A DNA stretch of 64,000 nucleotides from Candidatus Woesearchaeota archaeon (GTDB taxonomy: Archaea; Nanobdellota; Nanobdellia; Woesearchaeales; UBA10216), in the NCBI GenBank assembly GCA_016184345.1, contig JACPCV010000004.1:54453-118452 (forward strand), in the 5' to 3' direction. The notes beneath the pieces are model-generated. The model did no database searches and was not told where the DNA came from. It saw only the letters and a program-made list of their open reading frames with translations. Shown here in pieces: positions 1,748 to 62,649 of the stretch. How positions within the stretch are numbered: position 1 is the first letter of the stretch; each line of letters opens with the position of its first letter. A program made the position numbers and the translations under genes.

Positions 1748-2558
1748 AATAAACCGGATAATTCCGGGTGACTGTTTGGAAACAATAAGGAATCTTCCGA
1801 ACGAATCGGTAGATTTGATAGTTACAGATCCACCATTTAACATAGGGAAAAAATATAACTCTTATAAAGACAAGATGAAAAAAGAGGAATATATTAGATG
1901 GTGTGAGAACTGGCTTACAGAATGTATAAGAATTTTAAAACCTCACGGAAGTTTATATTTATTTAATTACCCTGAGAATAATGCTTATCTAATGCCGTTT
2001 TTAGACAAAAATATGGTTTTTAAAAGATGGATGACTTGGCATTACCCAACAAATACAGGAATGTCACCAACAAATTATACAAGGTCACAACACAGTATTT
2101 TATTTTACACTAAAACAGAAAAAGCAAGGTGGAATAAGAATCATATAGCCGAGCCGTATCGTAATCCGACAGATAAACGGATACTAGAGAGAATAAAAAA
2201 CGGAAGCAATGGCAAAACCCCTTATGACGTATTTCATTATAACATTGTTAAAAATGTAAATAGAGACAAAACAGAGCACGTTTGTCAGCTTCCGATTGAA
2301 CTTGTTGAAACATTCATCAAAGCGAGTAGTAATGCGGGAGATCTAGTTTTTGATCCTTTTATGGGTTCTGGAACTGTAGCTGTTGCCTCAAAAAAATTGG
2401 ACAGGAATTATTTAGGTTGTGAAATTGATAAATACTATTGTAAAATCATAAATGAAAGATTAGCAGAAGTAGAAAAGCCATTGCACAATTTCATAGTTGA
2501 AGACGCAAAAAAGGAGCATAAACCTGCAAGAGTTGAAGCGATAACTTCTTTTTTATAA
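1737..2558 (+). CDS. DNA amino-methyltransferase, beta class (N6-adenine or N4-cytosine)
   Basis: Motif IV TDPPFN near the N-terminus and motif I FDPFMGSGT near the C-terminus. 273 aa. Confidence 0.85.
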   Translation: METKINRIIPGDCLETIRNLPNESVDLIVTDPPFNIGKKYNSYKDKMKKEEYIRWCENWLTECIRILKPHGSLYLFNYPENNAYLMPFLDKNMVFKRWMTWHYPTNTGMSPTNYTRSQHSILFYTKTEKARWNKNHIAEPYRNPTDKRILERIKNGSNGKTPYDVFHYNIVKNVNRDKTEHVCQLPIELVETFIKASSNAGDLVFDPFMGSGTVAVASKKLDRNYLGCEIDKYYCKIINERLAEVEKPLHNFIVEDAKKEHKPARVEAITSFL

Positions 2559-3113
2559 AACTACTTTTTGTCTTTTTAGCTTAATTGTGCCTCTGCATGT
2601 TCTTATAAATCCGCCAAAGAATACAAGTTTATCTTTTTTGTCATAAATTGTTTTAGCAGATAAAGATGGCCCATAAAAATTATTTTGAATGTTTGATTTC
2701 CAATTTTCTTTTTCAAGATGAACTAAACAGCAAAAGAATTCGTCAAAATTTCCACCCCACGAGACCATAAGGTAATCAAATGGTCTTTTGCTAAATTCTC
2801 CACCTGTCCAGCTGTTATCTGTGGAAGTCATTTTTATCTCCATAGGAACATTAATTTTTGTGAAGGTAAGGTCTGGATCTCTATCTGCTGATGCTCTTTT
2901 GACTTCGTAACCTAATTTTTTGCTAAAAGTATCGGCGCAGGCTTTTTCCATTATTTTACCAATCAATTCAGAAATATTTTTTCTGCTTAAACCCAAATCT
3001 CCATACTCATGGTTAAATTTCTTCATCCTTAAAACTACAATTTTAAGAGACTCAAAAAGTGTCTTTTTTGTTAAGCCAAATTTTTGCAAATCAGCATTTA
3101 CTTTCTTTGCCAT
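2553..3113 (-). CDS. Putative type II restriction endonuclease (PD-(D/E)xK)
   Basis: 186 aa, convergent with and overlapping the 3' end of the methyltransferase by 6 nt. Contains RDPDLTFTKINVPMEIKM, a PD...ExK catalytic signature. Confidence 0.5.
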   Translation of the reverse strand: MAKKVNADLQKFGLTKKTLFESLKIVVLRMKKFNHEYGDLGLSRKNISELIGKIMEKACADTFSKKLGYEVKRASADRDPDLTFTKINVPMEIKMTSTDNSWTGGEFSKRPFDYLMVSWGGNFDEFFCCLVHLEKENWKSNIQNNFYGPSLSAKTIYDKKDKLVFFGGFIRTCRGTIKLKRQKVVL

Positions 3114-3363: not shown

Positions 3364-4239
3364 TCAATAATTTCTAATAACAACTTCGTTTATCACTCCT
3401 CTTTTGGCGCCGATGCAATTAATGGCTCTCCTCGCTTTAACCGTTACGATATTGAAATCCGAGTATAATTCTCTTATGAAAGGCGTATCACTGTTGCTTA
3501 ACATTAGCAAGCAATGTTTCTTATCCAGCTCTTTAAATTCCTTAGCTAACTGCCTCTGTTCATTTTCTAAAAAAGCGCCTTTTTGGTAAGATGTGAAGCT
3601 GGCAGTTTTTGTCAATGGGAAATATGGCGGATCCATATAAACAAAATCGTCCTCTTCTGCTTTTTTTACAGCTTCAGTGAAATCGGAAACCGATAGCTCA
3701 GCATTCTGCAAAAACTTTGAAGCCATCCTTAGTTTAACTTCTTGAAGTATAGCAGGTTTCTTATATTTACCAAAAGGAACGTTAAACTTGCCTTCCGAAT
3801 TTACCCTGTAAAGCCCGTTAAAGCACGTTTTGTTCAAGTAAATGAAAATTGCTGCTTTCTCCAGCCCATGTTTCATGGTGTTAAACTTTTGTCTTTGCTC
3901 ATTAAAATACGCTTTATTGTTATCCTTATCCCTATGTTCCCTCAATAGAGGGATGAGTTCATCTACATTATCTCTTACTGATTTGAACGTATTAATCAAA
4001 TCTTCGTTAATGTCAAATAGAAAACTTTGCGACGGGTTAAACTTCTGTTTCACGTTAAAGAATACGGCTCCGCTGCCTAAGAATATCTCCAAAAAATGGT
4101 TGAACTTTTGAGGGTAAAGCTCCGAGAATTGCCTTAATAGTTGGGTTTTCCCGCCTGCCCATTTAATGAATGCTGGATTGGCTATTTGCATCTGTTCTAA
4201 TATCTGAAAATTGCCTTTAAATGTGTTTTGAAACTCCAT
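3364..4239 (-). CDS. Dam-like N6-adenine DNA methyltransferase (alpha class, D12 family)
   Basis: N-terminal motif I FLEIFLGSGAV followed by DPPY (FVYMDPPYF). 291 aa. Similar to the Dam/DpnM family. Confidence 0.85.
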   Translation of the reverse strand: MEFQNTFKGNFQILEQMQIANPAFIKWAGGKTQLLRQFSELYPQKFNHFLEIFLGSGAVFFNVKQKFNPSQSFLFDINEDLINTFKSVRDNVDELIPLLREHRDKDNNKAYFNEQRQKFNTMKHGLEKAAIFIYLNKTCFNGLYRVNSEGKFNVPFGKYKKPAILQEVKLRMASKFLQNAELSVSDFTEAVKKAEEDDFVYMDPPYFPLTKTASFTSYQKGAFLENEQRQLAKEFKELDKKHCLLMLSNSDTPFIRELYSDFNIVTVKARRAINCIGAKRGVINEVVIRNY

Positions 4240-6293: not shown

Positions 6294-7545
6294 AAATCAC
6301 GTGAGCCATGCTTTCACGTTCCCTTATAACCCTCGCCTTCCCATTGCTGACAAGCACTTCAGCAGGCCTGGGCCTCGTGTTGTACGTTGACGCCATTGAG
6401 AAGCCGTAAGCCCCAGCGACAAGTATGGCCAGCACGTCGCCTTCCTTGATTTTAGGCAGCTTCCTGTCTGCAATGCCACTTTCATTCCGCGTAAAAACAT
6501 CACCCGACTCGCAAATATTGCCGCACACAGCAATTTTTTCTTTTTTATTGCTCTCACAAGTTTCAACAGCCAGTATCGGGTGGTAGCTGCCGTAAGCCAT
6601 CGGCCGTATGAGATGGTTGAAACCAGTGTCCACTCCTACAAACTTGTGCTTTGGCGTTTGCTTAATCGTGTTCACGGTGCAAAGGAGAACACCGGATTCT
6701 GCAACAAGAAACCTTCCAGGCTCTATCACCATTGCCAGCTGCCTGCCAAAGCTGCTGCAAAAATCCGAAAAGAGCTTGCTGACAGCAGAGCCAAAGACAT
6801 TCATGTCAATCGGCTTCTGGTCAAGCTTATACGGCACCCCAATGCCACCGCCGAAGTCAACAAACTCCAAATCGCCAAGCTTCTCCCTGTTTTTGCTGAT
6901 AATTGCAAGCAGCACCTTCATTGCGTCCAGGAACTTGCCAGTCTCAAGGATGCCTGAGCCGATGTGCTCATGGATGCCAATAATTTTCAGGTTGTGTTTT
7001 GCCGCTATTTCAAACGCCTTCCCAATCTCACCAGCCCAGATGCCGAACTTGCTGTCAGGGCCGCCAGTAATGACATGGCTGTGGTGCCCTGCGCCAACAT
7101 CAGGATTAACCCTGAAGCAGACCTTTGAGCTGGGGTTGAGCTTGCCGTAGCGCTCAAGCTGCGACAAAGAGTCACAGTTGACAAGGACTTTTTTGGCAAC
7201 TGCAAACCTCATTTCCTCATCCGTAACAGAGGTTGACGTGAAGATTATCTGCTCAGGCCTGAAGCCCGCCTTCAGGGCCATTTCAATCTCGCCAGGAGAA
7301 ACTGCGTCAATGCCAACAAACTCCCCGCCTTCGTCCTTAATAACTTTCAGGATTGCAAGGTTGGTGTTTGCCTTTGCCGCATAATAAAGTTTCAGCGGCC
7401 TGCAAGGGATATTCTGAAGCAGAGCCCTGACCTTTGAGCGTATAGTTTCCTCATCGTAAACGTACAGGGGAGTGCCGAACTGCCTTGCCAAACCAGAAGC
7501 TGCGACCTCGCCAACAAAGAGCCTGTTGCCCTTTACTGAAATCAT
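6283..7545 (-). CDS. lysA: Diaminopimelate decarboxylase
   Basis: 420 aa, PLP fold-III decarboxylase (YAAKANTNLAILK lysine-PLP motif, GGGIGVPY, CGNICESGD). Confidence 0.9.
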   Translation of the reverse strand: MISVKGNRLFVGEVAASGLARQFGTPLYVYDEETIRSKVRALLQNIPCRPLKLYYAAKANTNLAILKVIKDEGGEFVGIDAVSPGEIEMALKAGFRPEQIIFTSTSVTDEEMRFAVAKKVLVNCDSLSQLERYGKLNPSSKVCFRVNPDVGAGHHSHVITGGPDSKFGIWAGEIGKAFEIAAKHNLKIIGIHEHIGSGILETGKFLDAMKVLLAIISKNREKLGDLEFVDFGGGIGVPYKLDQKPIDMNVFGSAVSKLFSDFCSSFGRQLAMVIEPGRFLVAESGVLLCTVNTIKQTPKHKFVGVDTGFNHLIRPMAYGSYHPILAVETCESNKKEKIAVCGNICESGDVFTRNESGIADRKLPKIKEGDVLAILVAGAYGFSMASTYNTRPRPAEVLVSNGKARVIRERESMAHVIYGV

Positions 7546-10630: not shown

Positions 10631-11538
10631 TCTACTACCCCCATGCCAGCCAGCACCTTCCTGAGCGTTTCCCTGTTCTCAGGGCGGAGCTCACACAGCG
10701 GAAGCCGGAGCGGCCCGGCCGGCATGCCCGCCATTTCCATTGCCTCCTTGATGGGTATCGGGTTTGTCTCAATGAACGCAGCCTTGAAGAGGGGAGCAAG
10801 GTATGAGTTCACTTTTTCAGCTTCCGCATAATTTTTCTGCATCGCGTATGCGCACAGGTCAGCTACCTTGCGCGGCAGCAGGTTGCTGATGACTGAGATA
10901 ACTCCCACTCCTCCTGCTTTCATCAGCTCAAGGGTCATGTTGTCATCTCCGCTTAAAACAACAAAGTCCTTCGGCATCTTTGCAATGACATCCTTCATCT
11001 GGTTCAGGTCGCCTGACGCTTCCTTGACGCCAACAATATTCTTGATCCCCTTGAACCGCTCCATTGTAGCAGTCTCAATATTCACTGCAGTCCGCCCCTT
11101 GATGTTGTATACGATGATGGGAATGTCAACTGCCTCAGCCACTGCCTTGAAGTGCCTGTAAAGCCCTTCCTGGGTTGGCTTGTTGTAATATGGCGATACA
11201 ATGAGCACGGCATCTGCGCCAAGCTCTTTAGCCACTCTGGTATGCTCAACTGTCGTAGCAGTGGAGTTTGTCCCTGTCCCGACAATTACCGGTATCCGCT
11301 TGCGGGCAGTTTCAACAACTGCAGTGATGATGGCCTTGCGTTCCTCTTCAGTAACAGTAGGCGATTCGCCTGTTGTCCCAAGCGGAACAAGCCCTGAAAT
11401 TCCCTGCTGTATCTGAAATTCAACGTTCTCCTTCAATCCTGTGATGTCCAGGCTGCCGTCCTGCCTGAAAGGCGTAACCATGGCGGTTATCGCACCTGAA
11501 ATCCTTACAGTTTTTTCATTTGAACCCATTGGTACCAC
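10627..11538 (-). CDS. dapA: 4-hydroxy-tetrahydrodipicolinate synthase
   Basis: 303 aa, TIM-barrel lyase with the GTTGE motif (LGTTGESPT) and Schiff-base lysine region VGVKEASGD. Confidence 0.9.
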   Translation of the reverse strand: MVPMGSNEKTVRISGAITAMVTPFRQDGSLDITGLKENVEFQIQQGISGLVPLGTTGESPTVTEEERKAIITAVVETARKRIPVIVGTGTNSTATTVEHTRVAKELGADAVLIVSPYYNKPTQEGLYRHFKAVAEAVDIPIIVYNIKGRTAVNIETATMERFKGIKNIVGVKEASGDLNQMKDVIAKMPKDFVVLSGDDNMTLELMKAGGVGVISVISNLLPRKVADLCAYAMQKNYAEAEKVNSYLAPLFKAAFIETNPIPIKEAMEMAGMPAGPLRLPLCELRPENRETLRKVLAGMGVVE

Positions 11539-11552
11539 CCCGTAATCTTGTT

Positions 11553-12953
11553 TTAGGCTTTCAATTTGCCTTGCCTCGCCTTTGCGACTGCTGCAACCGG
11601 AGCCTGGGCAACCTGTGCGCCAAAAAACTCGCCATGCAAAGCCCGGACAGCCTCGGCAAGGCGACTCTCATTTATAACGATGCTCACGTTAACGTCAGCG
11701 TAACTCTGCGACGTCATCTCAATATTAATGCCAAGCTTTCCGAGCATTGAAAATATCTTGCCCCCAACACCCGGCCTTGACTTTATGCCCATACCTATCA
11801 CGCTTATGGATGCTCTGTCTTCCAAAACAGACACGTTTGCAAACTCCTTGAGCTTCTCAACAAGCTTTGAAACGTCAAACGACTTATCAACAGTCACTGA
11901 AACATTCACTTCAGACGTTGATACCAGGTCAACAGGAACCTTGTAATCGTTAAAAAGCTTGAACACGTGGTAAAGGAAGCCATACGCCCTGAGCATCCTT
12001 GCCGAGTTAATGTTAATAACGTAAATCTTATTCTTTGAGGTTATGGCTGTCACATGCTCCTTTCTGGCAACGTTTTTCAGGATAAGCGTGCCTTTGCCTG
12101 AAGGGTTGAACGTGTTAAGCACCCTTACCGGGATGTTCCTGTCCAATGCAGGCAGGATTGTCTTTGGGTGGAGCACCTTTGCGCCAAAATAAGCAAGCTC
12201 GCTCGCCTCCTCAAACGAAACAACGTCAACAGTCCTTGCATCAGGCACAATCCTCGGATCAGCAGTCATGACGCCGTCAACGTCAGTCCAAATCTGGATT
12301 TCCCCTGCGCCAAGGGCAGCGCCGAAAATCGCGGCAGAATAATCGCTGCCTCCCCTTCCGAGAGTTGTGACTTCACCCTGCTCATTCTTGCCGATGAAGC
12401 CTGTAACAACAGGGATAGCGCCTTTTGGAATAACTGAAACGGCAGCCGCAATCCGCTGGTAAGCGCCCGGAAGAATCTCCGCATTGCCAAAATTCTGGTC
12501 TGTAACCACGCCAAGGTCATAAGCATTAAACGCCTGGGCGCTGAGACCGATTTTCCTTGCGGAAGCAGCAAAAATATTTGAAGACATCCGCTCGCCAAAC
12601 GAGGCAACGTAGTCCGTAGTCCGGGTGGTGAGCTCCTTGACGAGGGAGATGCCAAAAAGGACCTGCTCAAGCTCGGCAACATCCTCTGAGATGATGCCAG
12701 GGTCAAGCCCCAAGCCCTGAATAACTGTTTGGTGCCTTTCCTCAATTGCACCTATCATTTCTTTCGCGGAAAAGCCCCTCTCAAGGGCTTTCCTGGCTGA
12801 TGCAAGGAGAAGGTCAGTAACCTCTGAGAGGGCAGAAACCACAACAAAAGGGGCACGGCCTTTGCTTGCAGCCACTATGCCAACAGACTGCCGTATGCTT
12901 TCAGCACTGCCAACAGACGTGCCGCCAAACTTCATCACAATCACAGCAACCAT
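11553..12953 (-). CDS. lysC: Aspartate kinase
   Basis: 466 aa, KFGGTSVGS kinase N-terminus and C-terminal tandem ACT domains. First gene of the operon. Confidence 0.9.
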   Translation of the reverse strand: MVAVIVMKFGGTSVGSAESIRQSVGIVAASKGRAPFVVVSALSEVTDLLLASARKALERGFSAKEMIGAIEERHQTVIQGLGLDPGIISEDVAELEQVLFGISLVKELTTRTTDYVASFGERMSSNIFAASARKIGLSAQAFNAYDLGVVTDQNFGNAEILPGAYQRIAAAVSVIPKGAIPVVTGFIGKNEQGEVTTLGRGGSDYSAAIFGAALGAGEIQIWTDVDGVMTADPRIVPDARTVDVVSFEEASELAYFGAKVLHPKTILPALDRNIPVRVLNTFNPSGKGTLILKNVARKEHVTAITSKNKIYVININSARMLRAYGFLYHVFKLFNDYKVPVDLVSTSEVNVSVTVDKSFDVSKLVEKLKEFANVSVLEDRASISVIGMGIKSRPGVGGKIFSMLGKLGINIEMTSQSYADVNVSIVINESRLAEAVRALHGEFFGAQVAQAPVAAVAKARQGKLKA

Positions 12954-25278: not shown

Positions 25279-27969
25279 ATGAGAAAAGAGGCAGGAATTT
25301 CTTCAGCATCAGCTTCAACAATAGCCATCTTTAGCGCTTTAATCGCTTCATTACTGCTAGTAATAGCTGTTGCAGCCCAGGAAGAGGAGGAAGAGGTCAT
25401 GGTCGAGGAGGAGCTTGTTCCTGAGGAAGCAGCAGGGGTAACTCCTGACAGCCCAATCTACGTCTTTGACAAGATTGTTGACGACGTGCAGCTTGCTCTC
25501 GCTAAAGGAGAGGACAAGACAAAGAAAGCCCTTGAAATAAAGGAGGAAAGGATTGCAGAAGCAGCCATAATGGTTGACAAGAAAAAGCCAGATGCGGCAA
25601 AAGGCGCGCTTGAGCTCGCAGCAAAGGCAGCAGGGCAGGCGCAGAAGGAGCTTGACCCTGAGTTTGAAAAAGAGACAAACGAAAAAGTAAGGAGGGCGGC
25701 AAAGCTGCTCTCTGGCCTGCAGGAAAAGCTCCCTGACCAGGGCTGGGAGGGCGTAGAGAAAGCGCTTGACGCACAGCTCAGCGAGGAAGAAAAGGTAAGG
25801 GTAGCGCTTCTCGTGTCAAAAAGCAGGCTCACCTACTGCGATGCCATTGCACAGCAGGACTTTGACCTAATGAAGCAGGACGAACTCTGCCAGGTGGAAA
25901 AAGCCCCACAGTGGCTCAGAGAAAGGGTAGAAGGCGAGTTCAAGTCAAGGGAAGACAAAGCCAGGAACCTGATTATAGACACGGTAAGCTCCTGTGTAGT
26001 AGACCCTAAAAAGTGCGACTGCAGCCAGATACCTGTTGGGAAGCACAGCCAGTCATGCGAAGTCAAAAAGGCATTAGCGATAAGGTGCGAGTACGAAAAC
26101 GACGAGTCGGCATGCTCAGAGCTGGCTTCTGAGAAGCTTGAAGACTTCCTGCCCGAGTTCGTTGGCGAGGAGGGGAAGCAGACTGTGCTCTCGCACCTGC
26201 GCGAGAAGGAAGAGCAAATGTTTGAAAAGTTCAAGCCGCCGGAATGCGCAAATGCGCAAACGTTCCAGGAATGCTTCGCAGTCATGAAAGACCTCTACGG
26301 AACACCCATGCAATGCAAAGGCCTAAGCGATGACGAATGCATGGAATTCATTAAGCGAAACCCTCCAACCGAGAAGCCCAACCTGCCGCCGGAATGCAAT
26401 GAGGCAGGCGTCCAAAAGCCAGTTGAGTGCGCAGAGCTCATGTTCAGCAAATATGGAACACCCCCACAATGCGAAGGGCTTGACACAAGGGAATGCATGA
26501 AGCTGATGAGGCAGGAAAGGCCTGATGCGATGCAAAACGCAATGCCAAAGGAGTGCCAGGACGCAGGAGCGAAAGAGCCAAGGCAGTGCTTTGACATAAT
26601 GACTGCAAAATTCGGCTTCCCGCCAGAATGCGAAGGGCTGGATACTGATTCCTGCTTCAAGGAAATGATGAAGCGGGGACCCGGAGAAGGGCCGGAAGGC
26701 GGAACAAGGCAGGAAACTCCGGAGTGCCAGGAGAAGGGAGTAAAAGGCAAGGACTGCTTCCTGCTAATGACTGAGCTCTATGGGGGAATGCCACAGGAAT
26801 GCGAAGGGCTGAGCGCTGACGAATGCTTTGAGAAAGTGACAAAGGAAGGCCCGCCAAAAGGAGCACCTCCGGTAAACTGCGTCGGGCTAAGCCCTGAAGA
26901 GTGCAGGGCAAAGATCCAGGAGCAGCACGGGCTCCCGCCGGAATGCGCGCAGAATCCTGACCAGTGCCAGAACGCGTTTGAAGGCAGGGGAGTGCCGGGA
27001 GGAATACCTGCAGAATGCGCAGGGCTTGAGCCAGAGCAGTGCGAGCTTGTAATGATGCAGAAGTTCGGGCCGCCGGAATGCAAAGAGGCAACAAAGGACG
27101 AGTGCGAGGCAATAATGAAGGAAAAATACGGAGAAGGCGGCTTTGGAGGAGGACCCGGTCCCGGCGGTCCGGGCCAAGGCGGTGAAGGCGGCTTCGGATT
27201 TGGAGGAACAGGCGGAGGAGGCTTTGTAAATGAATGCGAAGGCCTGCCAAGGGAGGAGTGCGAGAACAAGATGTTTGAAAAGTTTGCCCCGCCGGAATGC
27301 AGCGGCTTATCAAGGGAAGAATGCGGAAGGATGACCAGGGGGAGGTTTGAGCGCGAGAGGCAGGAACAAGATAAAAACCGCGGTGAATGCGAAGGCCTAT
27401 CAGAAGAAGAATGCAGAGGCAAGTTCTTTGAAGGCAGGGGAGAGGGAGACGCAAGAGGCGAGGGCGAAAGGCGGGAAGGAGGGGATGCAGGAGCGGCTGG
27501 ACCACAACGCACATTTAGGGAGCCGCTTGGGGAGCCTATAAGGGGAGCACCTTCTGGGTGTGAAGGACTCTCACCAGAAGAATGCGGCTCAAGAATGGAA
27601 CAGGCAGCGAAGGAAAGGTTCATTCCGCAAGGAGAGCCGATAAGGCGAGAACCGCAACAGCAGCCATACCCGGCAAGGGAATATCCTGCAGGCTCATACC
27701 CCGAACGGGGAGGAGAATACCCGAGAGGTTACCAGCAGCCCAGCGGCGGAGAAGGCAGCTACCCAAGCAGTGAAGGTTCTTACCCTGGCAGCGGGAGCGG
27801 CACCAGCGATGGCGGAAGCGAAAGCAGTGGAGGATTTGGAGGAGACTCTGGAAGCCCAGGCAGAAGTGACAGTGGCAGCGGGGGAGGCGGCTCAGGCGGC
27901 GGAGAAGGCACAGCAGCAGCGATAACAGGCCAGATAATAAAAGCAATCAAGTGGGTAGGCGGGAGATAA
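25279..27969 (+). CDS. Large secreted low-complexity protein with >12 tandem Cys-containing repeats (PPEC-EGL-x3-EC-x2-M-x3-G), acidic N-terminus and Gly/Ser-rich C-terminus
   Basis: 896 aa, N-terminal hydrophobic anchor or signal. Repeat unit of about 22-30 aa (e.g. GTPPQCEGLDTRECMKLMRQERP, GFPPECEGLDTDSCFKEMMKRGP). C-terminal G/S/Y-rich tail. Antisense ORFs in this region are compositional artefacts. Confidence 0.7.
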   Translation: MRKEAGISSASASTIAIFSALIASLLLVIAVAAQEEEEEVMVEEELVPEEAAGVTPDSPIYVFDKIVDDVQLALAKGEDKTKKALEIKEERIAEAAIMVDKKKPDAAKGALELAAKAAGQAQKELDPEFEKETNEKVRRAAKLLSGLQEKLPDQGWEGVEKALDAQLSEEEKVRVALLVSKSRLTYCDAIAQQDFDLMKQDELCQVEKAPQWLRERVEGEFKSREDKARNLIIDTVSSCVVDPKKCDCSQIPVGKHSQSCEVKKALAIRCEYENDESACSELASEKLEDFLPEFVGEEGKQTVLSHLREKEEQMFEKFKPPECANAQTFQECFAVMKDLYGTPMQCKGLSDDECMEFIKRNPPTEKPNLPPECNEAGVQKPVECAELMFSKYGTPPQCEGLDTRECMKLMRQERPDAMQNAMPKECQDAGAKEPRQCFDIMTAKFGFPPECEGLDTDSCFKEMMKRGPGEGPEGGTRQETPECQEKGVKGKDCFLLMTELYGGMPQECEGLSADECFEKVTKEGPPKGAPPVNCVGLSPEECRAKIQEQHGLPPECAQNPDQCQNAFEGRGVPGGIPAECAGLEPEQCELVMMQKFGPPECKEATKDECEAIMKEKYGEGGFGGGPGPGGPGQGGEGGFGFGGTGGGGFVNECEGLPREECENKMFEKFAPPECSGLSREECGRMTRGRFERERQEQDKNRGECEGLSEEECRGKFFEGRGEGDARGEGERREGGDAGAAGPQRTFREPLGEPIRGAPSGCEGLSPEECGSRMEQAAKERFIPQGEPIRREPQQQPYPAREYPAGSYPERGGEYPRGYQQPSGGEGSYPSSEGSYPGSGSGTSDGGSESSGGFGGDSGSPGRSDSGSGGGGSGGGEGTAAAITGQIIKAIKWVGGR

Positions 27970-35958: not shown

Positions 35959-36525
35959 ATGTGGCAAACAAGCAGCCTTAACCCCGAGCTTCAGGAGATA
36001 AAACAGCTCAGGAAGAAGCACAGCCTCACGCAAGCGCAGCTGGCGAAGCTGGCGGGGGTCTCCCAAAGCCTGGTTGCAAAGATAGAAGCTGGCACGATTG
36101 ACCCGACATTCAGCCATGTGAAAAGAATACTGGAAGTCCTGCACAGCATGGAAACGGAAAAAGAGCCGAAAGCAGGGCAGCTGATAACGCACAGGATAAT
36201 TGTCGTAGGGAAAAGCGAGCCCCTGTCCAAAGCGATAAGGGAAATGAAGAATTACGGCATATCACAGCTGCCTGTCACTGATGGCAGAGGAATTGTCGGG
36301 CTTGTTTCAGAAACAGCTATAATTGAAAAGATGGCAGAGGGCAGAGAGCTGTCAAAACTCGGCGTGAAAGACGTCATGGAAGAAGCCCCACCTGTCGTTG
36401 CAATGGCAACGCCAATGGCAGCGGTCACTGAGCTGCTAAGGCACTCTTCCCTGATTATTGTCGCTGAGAACGGAAAGCCGAAGGGCGTGATAACCAAGGC
36501 GGATATGCTGAAGAGGATAGGATAA
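35959..36525 (+). CDS. HTH (XRE-type) plus tandem CBS-domain regulator
   Basis: 188 aa. LTQAQLAKLAGVSQSLVAKIE helix-turn-helix, then two CBS modules. The 3' end contains one copy of the 44-bp repeat. Confidence 0.7.
   Translation: MWQTSSLNPELQEIKQLRKKHSLTQAQLAKLAGVSQSLVAKIEAGTIDPTFSHVKRILEVLHSMETEKEPKAGQLITHRIIVVGKSEPLSKAIREMKNYGISQLPVTDGRGIVGLVSETAIIEKMAEGRELSKLGVKDVMEEAPPVVAMATPMAAVTELLRHSSLIIVAENGKPKGVITKADMLKRIG
36475..36518. repeat. 44-bp direct repeat, left copy, inside the 3' end of the CBS gene
   Basis: aagccgaagggcgtgataaccaaggcggatatgctgaagaggat, identical to 37468-37511. Confidence 0.85.
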
Positions 36526-36567
36526 ATAAGCTCTGTTAAAAGTCTTTGGCGACTGCAAGTTGCGCCG

Positions 36568-37401
36568 TTAGCCCTGCTGCGGCGAATATTTGTCTAGAAT
36601 GTCCTGCCTGCCAGTACACTTGGCAGCCAGAAGCATAAAATTAAGTATCTCAGAGGTCATTTTTTTAGGTATTTCTTCAGGTAGACCTTCTAATTTGCTG
36701 TGAAGGTCAACACCTGCCAATTTCGCAATGTTATAAACTGAAGCTGCAGCTGTGTAGAACCGCAAAGCATTTTCGCAAGTGGTAAAGTACTTATTTATAG
36801 TTTCTTTTCCTACGGTATCGGCCAAGTATTCCTCCAACCGTCTGTCTGAGGCCTCAAACAGTCTGAAGCCAAACATTGAGAGTTGAACTTTCTCTAATTC
36901 TAGAAACTCGCTTTTAACCTGTTCCATCCGGGGCGGGCTAGCGTAGCGATAGAGGTCTGCAAGATGAAGAGAGGCGTCTGCCCAAACATAAAAAAACATA
37001 TACTTTCCCTCACGCCTTTTACCGAATATAATGCCCGGCTGCAGTTTTGCTAACTGCATTTCTAAACTACCAGTTTGCTCTAAAAATTTGTAAACGTTCT
37101 CAAAAGTCACAGCAGTTTGCTCGAAGCGCCGAACCGCCGCTTTCCATTTTCCAAGAGGTATTAGAGGTGGCTCATCGAAGGGTGAGTCTGGATTTATCCA
37201 AACATAAGGATCAAGATCAAACCCATCCAGAATTCTGCGAGCTTCAGCATATTTTCGGATTGCAATTGTTAACTCGGAAAATGTTTGAGGCATCAAAAAA
37301 TCGTGTTCAGCCAGCACTTCTTCTAGAAAGGAAACTGCGATTCCTGAGTAAACTCGCGGCGCTCCTTCAGTCCCATGCTCTTTTGGCAAGTTATCAACCA
37401 T
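36568..37401 (-). CDS. Hypothetical 277-aa protein, the sole cargo between the 44-bp direct repeats
   Basis: Long ORF with no recognisable motif. Opposite strand to flanking genes. Confidence 0.5.
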   Translation of the reverse strand: MVDNLPKEHGTEGAPRVYSGIAVSFLEEVLAEHDFLMPQTFSELTIAIRKYAEARRILDGFDLDPYVWINPDSPFDEPPLIPLGKWKAAVRRFEQTAVTFENVYKFLEQTGSLEMQLAKLQPGIIFGKRREGKYMFFYVWADASLHLADLYRYASPPRMEQVKSEFLELEKVQLSMFGFRLFEASDRRLEEYLADTVGKETINKYFTTCENALRFYTAAASVYNIAKLAGVDLHSKLEGLPEEIPKKMTSEILNFMLLAAKCTGRQDILDKYSPQQG

Positions 37402-37467
37402 TTGAGCAAGTGATTTGAAACTAATATATTAAGATTATGGCTGGAGGACAATCTCAAGTTATGTGGG

Positions 37468-37511
37468 AAGCCGAAGGGCGTGATAACCAAGGCGGATATG
37501 CTGAAGAGGAT
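37468..37511. repeat. 44-bp direct repeat, right copy
   Basis: Perfect copy of 36475-36518. Re-encodes ...KPKGVITKADMLKRI in frame, followed by a stop. Confidence 0.85.
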
Positions 37512-37574
37512 TAGCTGAAGTAAAAACGCTTATAAACAGTAACCACAATTTAGCTGCCAGCGAGGTGCGCTAAA

Positions 37575-38078
37575 ATGGTAAATCGGTTCATTAGCGGGCT
37601 GAGATCCTTAGTAGGAATCAGCGAGAAAGAGGACGTCATTGAACTTAGGGAGCTTGTGAAGGCTCATAAGCTGCTTGAAAAACCCGGAGGCATAAAAGAG
37701 GAACAAAAATTCTACGAAGAGCTGCCTAACAGGATTGAACAAGCCCGCCAATTGTTGTCTGATGCAATGAAGCATGATGAGAAGCTTAAAAGAGCTTCAG
37801 AACAGCTCATGATAAATATAGGCACGTTGCCACTAGCCATGAAAAGGGAAATCGGAGATAGAGAACGGCAAGCCATACTGATAGCGGGAAATATAAAGCA
37901 ACATCTGGATGTGGTAGTTGAAAGCTTGGATGAGTTGAAGCGAACGCTTTACACGTTCAACCTTCAACAGATAGAAGATCATTTGTATAGGATTATTGAG
38001 GCAGTCAGATGGCTGTTCCGGTCAGAGGCAAAAGCGGCACAGATGCTGAAAAGCCTTGAAGATTTGTCAAGGCACTAA
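37575..38078 (+). CDS. Hypothetical alpha-helical/coiled-coil protein
   Basis: 167 aa. GAGGTG RBS ~10 nt upstream. Confidence 0.4.
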   Translation: MVNRFISGLRSLVGISEKEDVIELRELVKAHKLLEKPGGIKEEQKFYEELPNRIEQARQLLSDAMKHDEKLKRASEQLMINIGTLPLAMKREIGDRERQAILIAGNIKQHLDVVVESLDELKRTLYTFNLQQIEDHLYRIIEAVRWLFRSEAKAAQMLKSLEDLSRH

Positions 38079-38097
38079 TTCCGACTGCCTGACGGCC

Positions 38098-38838
38098 TTA
38101 GGCAATATCCCTAACCTTCCCGAAGCGGTAAACTTTGTCGCCGATAACGAAAACCTCAAACTGGCTTAAATCCTGCCGCATGAACGGACTGATGAATTTC
38201 TCTTTCATGATGTCAGTGCCTATTGTAACCTGATTGAAGGAGGGCATGACTATCATCCTCTTGCCCTTCCACTTGCCGAGGATGAAGCACTTGTAAAGCT
38301 CGCTCCTGGCTCCCTCCCTCAGCGAGACAGCAGGGTGCTCATCGCCAACAATGACAATTTTTGACTTTTCAAACTCTCTGCTGGCAGGGATTTCATGGCC
38401 GTGGCTAACGAATTTGCCGTTAATGGCAATGTCCTCCACAACGACTATGCCCCTTTTCCTCGCTATTGGGGCTAATTTAACATCATGGTTGCCCTTCACA
38501 AGTATCACCTGCTTTGAGTGCCCAAGAAGGAAGTCAATGAGCTTCAGGATTTCACGCCATTCCTGGCCTGTGATCGTGCCAAACTCGTGCTTGAGGTCGC
38601 CGTTCACAACAACAGCCTCAAGTTTTTTACTTTTCAGCTGCAGGCGCAACAGCGAGAATATTTTTTCCAGGCGGCTGATTGTATCCTTAAACTGGAACCT
38701 GGGCAGGAACACGCCCTGCCTTCCCATGGCTTCCTCGTAGCCGAGGTGCACATCCCCAATTACCAGAATGTTCTCTTTCCTGAGGTAGAGCGCGAGGTCA
38801 GCTATTGCAATACCCGGGAGGATTTCTATGAGTGCCAT
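38098..38838 (-). CDS. Calcineurin-like metallophosphoesterase (the MPE partner usually found beside Lhr)
   Basis: 246 aa, GDVHLG...GDLKH...GNHD...GH motifs. Confidence 0.75.
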   Translation of the reverse strand: MALIEILPGIAIADLALYLRKENILVIGDVHLGYEEAMGRQGVFLPRFQFKDTISRLEKIFSLLRLQLKSKKLEAVVVNGDLKHEFGTITGQEWREILKLIDFLLGHSKQVILVKGNHDVKLAPIARKRGIVVVEDIAINGKFVSHGHEIPASREFEKSKIVIVGDEHPAVSLREGARSELYKCFILGKWKGKRMIVMPSFNQVTIGTDIMKEKFISPFMRQDLSQFEVFVIGDKVYRFGKVRDIA

Positions 38839-46941: not shown

Positions 46942-46975
46942 TTGAGCTGTAAGGTTAGCGGGTGGTAAGCAAGGT
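46942..46975 (+). repeat. Island boundary repeat A (ttgagctgtaaggttagcgggtggtaagcaaggt), outer left
   Basis: About 31/34 identical to repeat B. Its reverse complement matches repeat D (52753-52785). Confidence 0.7.
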
Positions 46976-47240: not shown

Positions 47241-47274
47241 TTGAGCTGTAAGGTTAGCGTTTGGTAAGCAAAAG
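47241..47274 (+). repeat. Island boundary repeat B (ttgagctgtaaggttagcgtttggtaagcaaaag), inner left
   Basis: Its reverse complement matches repeat C (52332-52362), about 21/27. Confidence 0.7.
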
Positions 47275-49779: not shown

Positions 49780-50661
49780 ATGGAAATGCAAACAAAATGC
49801 GTCTTTTGCAAAGCCACCAACTATATCAAGTGGGGTACTCGCAAAACAGAGAACAGGGGTAGTATTCAGAGGTATAAATGCCTGTCTTGTAAGAAGCGAT
49901 TTACTAATGATGATGGTTTTTACAGGATGCGAAATAGCGAAGAGAAGATTACAGCAGCTATTGACCTTTACTTTTCTAACTTGTCCAGTAGGAAGGTTAG
50001 GAACCACTTTAGAAGGCATTGGAACCATAATGCCAGTCATATGAGCATACTTGATTGGTGCCGAAGATACACCCTTAAAATCCAAAAATACGTGGCTACA
50101 ATGCAGCCACAGCTAAGTGGGCAGTTCTATATGGACGAAACCGAAATAGACAGAGGCAGGGGAAATGATGTTTTTTGGTGTAACGTGGACTGGGGAACAC
50201 GATTCATTAACTCAACAATGTATAGTCCTCACAATCAAACTGTAGAGGATGCTGCTACTTTCCTTAAAGCTACTGTTGCCAAAGGACTGCCAAAATACAT
50301 TCAGACAGATGCGGGTGTTTTTTACCCACAGGCATTTCAAAAGACCTTCTACTCAAGTAAAGCACAAGGTTTGACAGTAGAACACCGCATCCAGAACTAC
50401 CACAAAACAGGCAAGCACAACGTAAGGATTGAAACCGTCTTTATGAAGGTCAAAGACCGAGTGGACGATTTTAGAGGGCTTAAAGCCCTATGGAGTGCTC
50501 CGATACTAATGCAGGGCATAATATTACAGCATAACTTCATAGAAGCACACACAACAACAGGAAAAGTGCCTTCAGAATTAGCAGGTCTTAAACTGGAGGC
50601 AGGACAAAACAGATGGCTTGGAATGATAAAGTTGGCTTCGTCGGGAACAAAAGGTTTATAA
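49780..50661 (+). mobile_element. DDE transposase with N-terminal zinc ribbon, IS6-like
   Basis: 293 aa. CVFCKATN...YKCLSCKK zinc finger, then FYMDETEIDRGRG...NVDWGTRFI, resembling the DETY(V/I)K and D..R core of IS6-family enzymes. No matching terminal inverted repeats found. Confidence 0.5.
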
Positions 50662-62515: not shown

Positions 62516-62649
62516 CGGGCCGGACGGGACTTCCCTACCTTATCCTTTTTGGCCAAGCTTTTTGCTCGCCACAGCGAGGAAAAAGGTTGTTTGAACCCGC
62601 GACCCACGGATTAAAAGTCCGTTGCGCTGCCAGGCTGCGCTACCGGCCC
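62516..62649 (-). tRNA. tRNA-Lys (anticodon UUU) with a 60-nt intron in the T-loop between positions 59/60
   Basis: GGGCCGG-TA-GCGC-AGCCTGGCA-GCGC-A-ACGGA-CTTTTAA-TCCGT-GGGTC-GCGGG-TTCAAA[60-nt insert]T-CCCGT-CCGGCCC-G. The mature sequence is 74 nt with all stems paired. CC follows the discriminator. Confidence 0.7.

Follow-up and report, generated by a model that had tools for sequence, protein, structure and literature searches.

Recombination events that duplicate or orphan the end of a gene belong to a mechanism class already known from bacteria. In Escherichia coli conjugation, the single crossover of a circular molecule duplicated 109-950 bp of the lacZ end, and such end-duplicating single crossovers were far commoner there than true homology-facilitated illegitimate recombination (HFIR) (PMC3240628). 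At Rhs and type VI secretion system (T6SS) loci, orphaned 3' ends are left behind by displacement (PMC5361080). The locus described here adds an example in DPANN archaea. It lies in a stretch of 64,000 nt (64 kb) of contig JACPCV010000004.1, hereafter called the window, which derives from a Candidatus Woesearchaeota metagenome-assembled genome (locus tag HYU40_02385). The locus consists of a 949-bp cassette with a single orphan gene (the cargo), inserted between two direct copies of the 3' end of a transcription regulator gene. We lean towards reading this structure as the scar of a single recombination event in a variable intergenic slot, not as the attachment (att) site of a demonstrably mobile element.

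The repeat pair, the cassette and its junctions

The regulator gene (35959-36525, + strand) is intact and encodes a protein of 188 aa with an HTH_3 domain (Pfam E=5e-14) and a pair of CBS domains (E=4e-21). It belongs to a conserved Woesearchaeota family, whose close relatives are likewise 188 aa long. The 44-mer AAGCCGAAGGGCGTGATAACCAAGGCGGATATGCTGAAGAGGAT occurs in two exact copies on the + strand of the window, at 36475-36518 (R1) and 37468-37511 (R2), with 0 mismatches; the frequency of such a match in dinucleotide shuffles is 0/100, and the 44 nt are the sole long exact dispersed repeat within the window. The homology reaches 3 nt further left (36472 and 37465, respectively) across one synonymous mismatch, GGA versus GGG for glycine. 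The extended repeat of 47 nt corresponds to 16 codons with the peptide GKPKGVITKADMLKRI.

The two copies of the duplicated regulator segment, one on each side of the insert, differ in status and in what follows them. R1 (36472-36518 with the extension) forms the end of the regulator coding sequence and continues with ATA GGA TAA, hence the protein ends on ...KRIG*. R2, which together with its continuation ATT AGC TGA occupies 37465-37518 on the + strand, reads ...KRIS* and is non-coding, as no + strand open reading frame (ORF) of at least 40 aa runs across this segment. The last codon and the stop of the regulator (GGA TAA) come from the insert, and the reading frame is kept because the insert supplies them. 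A preliminary description of the locus had reported perfect 44-bp direct repeats and a duplication that preserves the reading frame, and on both points it is borne out. It had also placed the right copy correctly, with one correction: this copy does not stop after ...KRI but reads on to the serine codon and stop.

The closest regulators, P0004 and P0006 (86% and 83% identity), end on ...KRIS (ATC AGC TGA and ATA AGC TAA, respectively). The closest relatives of the locus, L003 and L005, harbor no insert, and 8-9 nt separate their regulator stop from that of a convergent metallophosphoesterase gene. The uninterrupted version of the locus, which the preliminary description had suggested looking for, thus exists in both, and the roughly 950 bp of extra DNA that it had noted are confirmed as 949 bp missing from these relatives and distinct in GC content. 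Since the closest relatives without the insert have regulators that end as R2 reads, R2 is the original 3' end of the regulator, displaced by the insertion.

The inserted cassette (36519-37467) consists of a donor-type regulator end (A GGA TAA), intergenic DNA, the cargo gene and its promoter. Its left part (36519-36567) combines the donor-derived regulator terminus with convergent intergenic DNA and the 3' untranslated region (UTR) of the cargo. The cargo ORF of 277 aa follows on the - strand (36568-37401). Upstream of it, a segment on the same strand (37402-37451) is conserved with the related loci L087 and L001 (90-93% identity) and contains the TATA-like motif TTAATATATTA at 37422-37432, about 25 nt upstream of the cargo ATG; judged by the usual position of the archaeal TATA box, this segment is the putative cargo promoter. 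A short segment, TCTCAAGTTATGT (37452-37464), separates the cassette from R2. The GC content of the cassette is 0.41-0.46; it averages about 0.43 across 36520-38100, a range that reaches past R2, and is about 0.51 in the flanks.

The left junction can be compared with a native counterpart. L087 is a locus from the same groundwater study and belongs to another Woesearchaeote; the regulator there has 78% identity and ends on ...KRIG. The gene order of L087 is regulator (+), cargo homologue (-), a spacer of 320 nt, a DUF362 gene (-), and metallophosphoesterase (-). The 60 nt after R1 are identical in 57 positions to the native regulator end, the intergenic DNA and the cargo 3' end of L087: the continuation of R1, ATAGGATAA-AT-AAGCTCTGTTAAAAG..., matches the native sequence ...AGA ATA GGA TAA AC AAGCTCTGTTAAAAGTCTTTGGCGAC... 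in L087. The repeat itself is identical to its L087 equivalent in only 35 of 44 positions (57/60 versus 35/44, Fisher p=0.026). The regulator gene overall shows an identity of 0.75-0.85 between the window and L087, and the value for the repeat is ordinary host-gene divergence. The match of the sequence after R1 to a native junction shows that the left junction is in register, which identifies it as a homologous crossover in the last bases of the regulator gene.

At the other end of the cassette, the homology to L087 and L001, which starts at 36519, stops at about 37451. The segment 37452-37464 has no homology to L087, L001 or the regulator gene, and is directly followed by GGG and R2. The right junction is an out-of-register join, either illegitimate or circle-closing. 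Terminal inverted repeats are absent from the ends of the insert.

The position of the insert coincides with a recurrent variable slot, as the comparison of gene neighbourhoods shows. Abutting regulator and metallophosphoesterase genes are frequent in Woesearchaeota and across 80 further DPANN loci. In other lineages the two genes are separated by 0.6-4 kb of varied DNA, often with a DUF362 gene and sometimes with toxin-antitoxin-like genes, which indicates that the slot is variable. The right edge of the slot in the window is the convergent metallophosphoesterase gene (38098-38838, - strand; Pfam Metallophos). Between R2 and this gene lies a second orphan of low GC content, ORF167 (37575-38078, + strand), with a counterpart (35% identity) at the equivalent position in L004, beside the metallophosphoesterase; no other homologue was found. 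This arrangement suggests that ORF167 is an older resident of the slot, located downstream of the original regulator end.

The same neighbourhood admits a reversed polarity of events, in which the cargo would be resident, as in L087, and an incoming fragment with R2, ...KRIS* and ORF167 would have replaced the spacer and the DUF362 gene. The left edge of the incoming piece would then be located 47 nt short of the 3' end in a regulator allele from a conspecific genome. The structure as it stands would look the same whichever side came last, most of this sub-clade has DUF362 in the slot while the window lacks it, and ORF167 is a low-GC orphan just as the cargo is. This order of events requires two steps instead of one, namely a scarless gain of the KRIG-type cargo followed by an illegitimate capture of the KRIS end. 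Moreover, the regulator as a whole has its highest identities with KRIS-type alleles (86% and 83%, versus 78% for L087), hence KRIS is expected to be the native end, and the counterpart of ORF167 in L004 suggests residency. We consider the reversed polarity improbable.

The surroundings of the slot contain further small modules in the relatives. The metallophosphoesterase/Lhr helicase neighbourhood harbors toxin-antitoxin-like pairs of the types NTP_transf_2 with HEPN, DUF2683 with ParE, and DUF3368 with UPF0175 (L006:8398-9487; L088:8811-9310 and 10850-11684; L087:10264-10476). The conserved metallophosphoesterase/Lhr block is dotted with such small accessory modules in several lineages.

Both junctions between insert and repeat are also present in independent assemblies of raw reads. 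A Logan contig of 1009 bp (k=31, 6 samples) consists of the insert and exactly 30 nt of the repeat on each side, and all contigs with ORF167 begin exactly 30 nt inside R2 (at least 8 samples, two run series); the repeat and both junctions are therefore real in the reads. An assembly artefact would require an uninterrupted chromosome, with ORF167 following the regulator, and a separate 993-bp circle or a haplotype of another strain that was misthreaded via the 44 nt. Such an error is compatible with the k=31 de Bruijn graph, which does not differ between the integrated form and a circle with an empty site: the 44-nt repeat exceeds its resolution, and every Logan contig breaks at the repeat. The deposited contig of 201 kb should, however, rest on k-mers or reads that span the junctions, and the graph has this topology in at least 8 samples of the two run series. 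A free 993-bp circle without a replication gene is implausible, and since the R1 junction matches the native junction of L087 in register, this type of junction exists in real genomes. An artefact is thus highly improbable. The integrated form is probably the correct one, and is preferred because 44 nt are shorter than reads and than the large k values of assemblers. The exact 44-nt repeat was not found in JGI metagenomes.

Distribution and evolution of the cargo gene

The cargo was described as an orphan without recognisable family in the preliminary description, and the remote-homology searches proposed there support this view. The 277-aa protein has no match at E<=1 in Pfam, PHROGs, PADLOC or NCBIfam, a profile search against the PDB returned noise only (E>0.3), and no homologues were found in IMG/VR, among INPHARED phages or on JGI metagenome contigs. 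A word-indexed search of 5.8 billion clusters and an exhaustive HMMER search of 1.84 billion representatives returned, among about 15 billion proteins, only the cargo itself (P0001) and P0002, and HMMER links the cargo to no larger family. P0002 is encoded on a contig of 1.3 kb (L001), where it adjoins the 3' end of a DUF362 gene. The third allele, in L087, was located via its gene context and not by protein search. The cargo protein is predicted to be almost wholly helical (all-alpha); an AlphaFold2 model from the two-sequence alignment has a pLDDT of 45, which is too poor for fold comparison.

All alleles of the cargo are open, with 277 aa in the window, 257 aa in L001 and 323 aa in L087. 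The proteins of the window and L087 are 51% identical (E=2e-76). Between the window and L001, all six indels are multiples of 3, and the off-frames hold 16-22 stops. The synonymous divergence (dS) of the cargo between the window and the lineage of L087 and L001 is 0.24 (bootstrap 0.17-0.32), with a ratio of nonsynonymous to synonymous divergence (dN/dS) of 1.29 (0.91-1.82). Five flanking host genes, encoding the regulator, the metallophosphoesterase, proteasome alpha, SBDS and Rrp4, have a dS of 0.98-2.08 and a dN/dS of 0.05-0.10. The dS of the cargo is 4-8 times below that of host genes between the same two lineages, and the cassette was therefore exchanged long after these lineages split. 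Cargo genes were seen in these two lineages only, and both cargo alleles occur in the SRR121134xx run series. The cargo is a horizontally exchanged orphan that diversifies rapidly and is nevertheless maintained.

Two further interpretations of the cargo region were rejected. The dS is even along the gene, and the better conservation of its 3' part reflects a lower dN; this rules out conserved cassette ends that act as shared recombination sites, as well as a recent mosaic. The DUF362 gene of other lineages has the same slot, strand and size as the cargo, which might point to the cargo as a diverged DUF362. This is ruled out, since L087 and L001 carry both genes adjacent to each other.

We also note two observations on the related alleles. 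The L087 cargo (L087:6610-7581, - strand) reaches its 323 aa because about 198 nt (about 66 aa) are duplicated in tandem within the gene; the duplication includes a repeat of about 80 nt at approximately 7190-7260 and 7388-7458 and is missing in L001 (L001:526-1299, 257 aa, same study, other sample). The contig L001 stops exactly 30 nt (k-1) past its last difference from the window cassette (L001:1302-1331). The pattern points to a second cassette allele in SRR12113432 that shares this 30-mer and is possibly the window's own, and hence to a single sample in which both alleles are present.

Because the cargo is maintained, evolves fast (dN/dS about 1.3) and is seen in two lineages only, it is a candidate conflict gene. 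An accessory role of conflict type would be our guess, based on its evolutionary rate and its neighbourhood.

Mechanism of insertion and alternatives

In the mechanism that we favour, the donor fragment would have consisted of the regulator gene end and the adjoining self-contained cassette with promoter, 277-aa ORF and 3' UTR. It would have entered by recombination on the regulator 3' end as sole homology; no other homology would have served, since the DUF362 gene on the far side of the cassette in L087 is missing from the recipient. On the left side, an in-register crossover at the gene end would let the regulator finish on the donor codon (...KRIG*). On the right side, where the register was lost, the promoter-side end would have been attached 47 nt short of the regulator end, and the original end (...KRIS*) would have been shifted downstream as a non-coding copy of 44 or 47 nt. 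The simplest route to this structure would be a single-crossover (Campbell-type) integration of a circularised donor fragment that carries the gene end. The product of such an event would have the order R1, donor last codon and cassette, circle-closing junction, and R2 with the native end. A homology-facilitated illegitimate join, or a template switch during replication, could have led to the same product. The sequences themselves show the insertion, its in-register junction, the displaced ancestral end, the horizontal origin of the cassette and the lack of recombination machinery encoded by the element; we infer both the circular intermediate and the enzymes, which would be those of host homologous recombination. 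The preliminary description had offered a recent duplication-mediated insertion as one of two explanations, and this comes close to the homology-anchored scar that we regard as the best one.

Several points weigh against the recombination scar. A Campbell-type crossover that gives identical copies needs an exact donor match, while the L087 anchor differs at 9 of 44 positions; for R1 and R2 to agree in all 44 positions, there must have been a conspecific donor not yet seen, homogenisation at a later time, or a template switch templated by the recipient. A size of 44 bp is typical of archaeal att sites of the SSV and pNOB8 types. The perfect identity of the copies, the discrete cassette with its own promoter and the transfer between lineages are compatible with a mobilisable element, and the examination for recombinases covered 64 kb of the genome.

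These properties can be accommodated by an att-flanked element without integrase, similar to a satellite or a cis-mobilizable element (CIME). The repeat would be the att core, the recombinase would be encoded elsewhere or would be the orphan protein itself, and a circle of 993 bp would carry the regulator 3' end as attP. Beyond the perfect direct repeats within the archaeal att size range and the horizontal transfer, this account is consistent with an element-borne 3' end that restores the target gene, with the low GC content of the discrete, promoter-bearing cassette, and with the use of the same nucleotide position in two lineages. A novel enzyme is conceivable, given that the cargo could be assigned to no known fold or family.

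Recognisable recombination machinery is not encoded by the insert, whose only ORF has no match in Pfam, PHROGs, PADLOC, NCBIfam or the PDB and which contains neither an integrase nor a transposase. Among the 20 integrase-sized ORFs of the window, no tyrosine or serine recombinase was found; these ORFs are housekeeping or unrelated, bar one borderline DDE transposase of IS6/IS240 type. The latter is an ORF of 293 aa at 49780-50661 (+ strand), 12 kb from the insert, that matches DDE_Tnp_IS240 (IS6-family transposase) with E=4e-6 and a score of 27.4 bits (cutoff 27), and is the only mobile-element signature among the ORFs tested.

The comparative evidence argues in the same direction. L087, the only other context of the cargo family, has the cargo at the same position without an attR-like repeat, which argues against att-site mobility there: a second copy of the regulator end, exact or degenerate, is absent from L087 including the spacer of 320 nt, with scores no higher than those of shuffled controls. 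The preliminary description had named relatives with the same arrangement and diverged repeats as an indication of an ancient origin; L087 instead has the gene at the same position and no repeat. A duplicated regulator end was found in 0 of 77 other DPANN loci and is likewise absent from L087, L088, L004 and L006, that is, in none of the more than 80 related loci. The repeat and the regulator-end peptide are absent from IMG/VR, and neither the regulator end nor the cassette UTR was found on any virus-like contig. The internal tandem duplication of 66 aa in one allele, together with a dN/dS of about 1.3, would be unusual for an enzyme, and a pure empty site was found in no sample.

Site-specific integration into the gene 3' end, the other explanation of the preliminary description, is therefore partly upheld in form but not as a mechanism, given the missing integrase, inverted ends, recurrence and viral repeat and the unflanked cargo in L087. 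An att-flanked element with a recombinase in trans or of its own remains, in our judgement, unlikely. Decidedly unlikely is its more specific form, in which the 993-bp unit represents the minimal form of an integrative cassette in DPANN archaea, has no integrase, uses the last 44 nt of the regulator as its att site and is moved by a trans-acting recombinase or by a novel one of its own. If it were true, a conflict-type gene that diversifies rapidly would be carried between co-occurring Woesearchaeota by a cassette of 993 bp.

Three further models were tried and discarded. A transposon or insertion sequence with target-site duplication does not fit, since inverted ends and a transposase are missing and the duplication measures 44-47 nt instead of 2-15 bp. 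The 3' region of the cassette (36519-36567) forms no structured attC-like site, as its RNA fold is not significant (z=0.9), and a terminator element was rejected as well, with an empty consensus terminator scan of the 3' UTR. Finally, tandem accretion with three att copies is ruled out, since no third repeat copy exists in the window or in the L087 spacer; in the window, the search for a third or degenerate copy to the right of ORF167 gave scores no higher than those of shuffled controls.

Other features of the window and comparison with known systems

Several features of the window are unrelated to the insertion. A tRNA-Lys(UUU) gene (62517-62649, - strand) carries about 60 nt of intervening sequence in its T-loop. 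Only the 5' part is recognised by Rfam (62592-62649, 30.1 bits), ARAGORN misses the gene, and the 3' T-stem and acceptor strand, TCCCGTCCGGCCC, are located at about 62517-62529. The interruption looks like a non-canonical intron position. A direct repeat of 31 nt (94% identical) occurs on the + strand at 46942-46972 and 47241-47271, 299 nt apart (TTGAGCTGTAAGGTTAGCG..TGGTAAGCAA), each copy a few tens of nucleotides upstream of a TTTATAAA box and a small to medium ORF; two adjacent promoters may share it as a site for regulator binding. Two DNA methyltransferase genes are found near each other, one of the N6_N4_Mtase family (1737-2558, + strand, E=2e-56) and one of the D12 class, Dam-like (3364-4239, - strand, E=3e-66), with an ORF of 186 aa (2553-3113) between them. 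Both may be part of restriction-modification systems. An ORF of 896 aa (25279-27969, + strand) contains several diverged internal repeats of 30-49 nt, which encode cysteine motifs (...PPEC..., ...EECE...), and its product looks like a repetitive protein that is probably secreted or located at the surface.

Gene exchange in the tiny, host-dependent DPANN archaea is poorly documented, and the locus provides a sequence-level example: a single-gene cassette exchanged between co-occurring Woesearchaeota, with one junction made by homology and one duplication scar. It also illustrates that a perfect att-like repeat that restores a gene end need not mean an integrase-driven element.

Four known systems can be compared with the locus. 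Integron cassettes share the single-gene unit of about 1 kb, the recurrent insertion position and the orphan cargo. Unlike them, the cassette described here has its own TATA-containing promoter region, and it lacks an attC-like site, an integron integrase and an array. Integrative elements of archaea and bacteria with tRNA or protein gene 3' ends as targets (integrases of the SSV and pNOB8 types), and their att-flanked derivatives without integrase (CIMEs), resemble the locus: the direct repeats measure about 44 bp, the element brings a 3' end that restores the target gene, and the cargo is of foreign composition. They differ in that no integrase is found here in the element, the window or related loci; the att duplication is present in no other of the more than 80 loci, and the other family member is unflanked.

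C-terminal displacement at Rhs, contact-dependent inhibition (CDI) and T6SS effector-immunity loci, together with HFIR, has in common with the locus a conserved upstream gene as anchor, a recurrent variable slot, and an incoming new gene end with a fast-evolving downstream gene, the old 3' end being retained downstream. Here, only one codon of the regulator is replaced, a toxin or immunity signature is missing, and a transcription regulator takes the place of a toxin-delivery gene as the anchor. Campbell-type integration likewise places the insert between direct copies of a homologous gene end, one in the gene and the other a non-coding remnant, and an element-encoded recombinase is unnecessary. 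The differences lie in the length of the duplicated end (44-47 nt here, 109-950 bp in the bacterial case), in the host, which is a DPANN archaeon, and in the circle, which is a proposed intermediate here.

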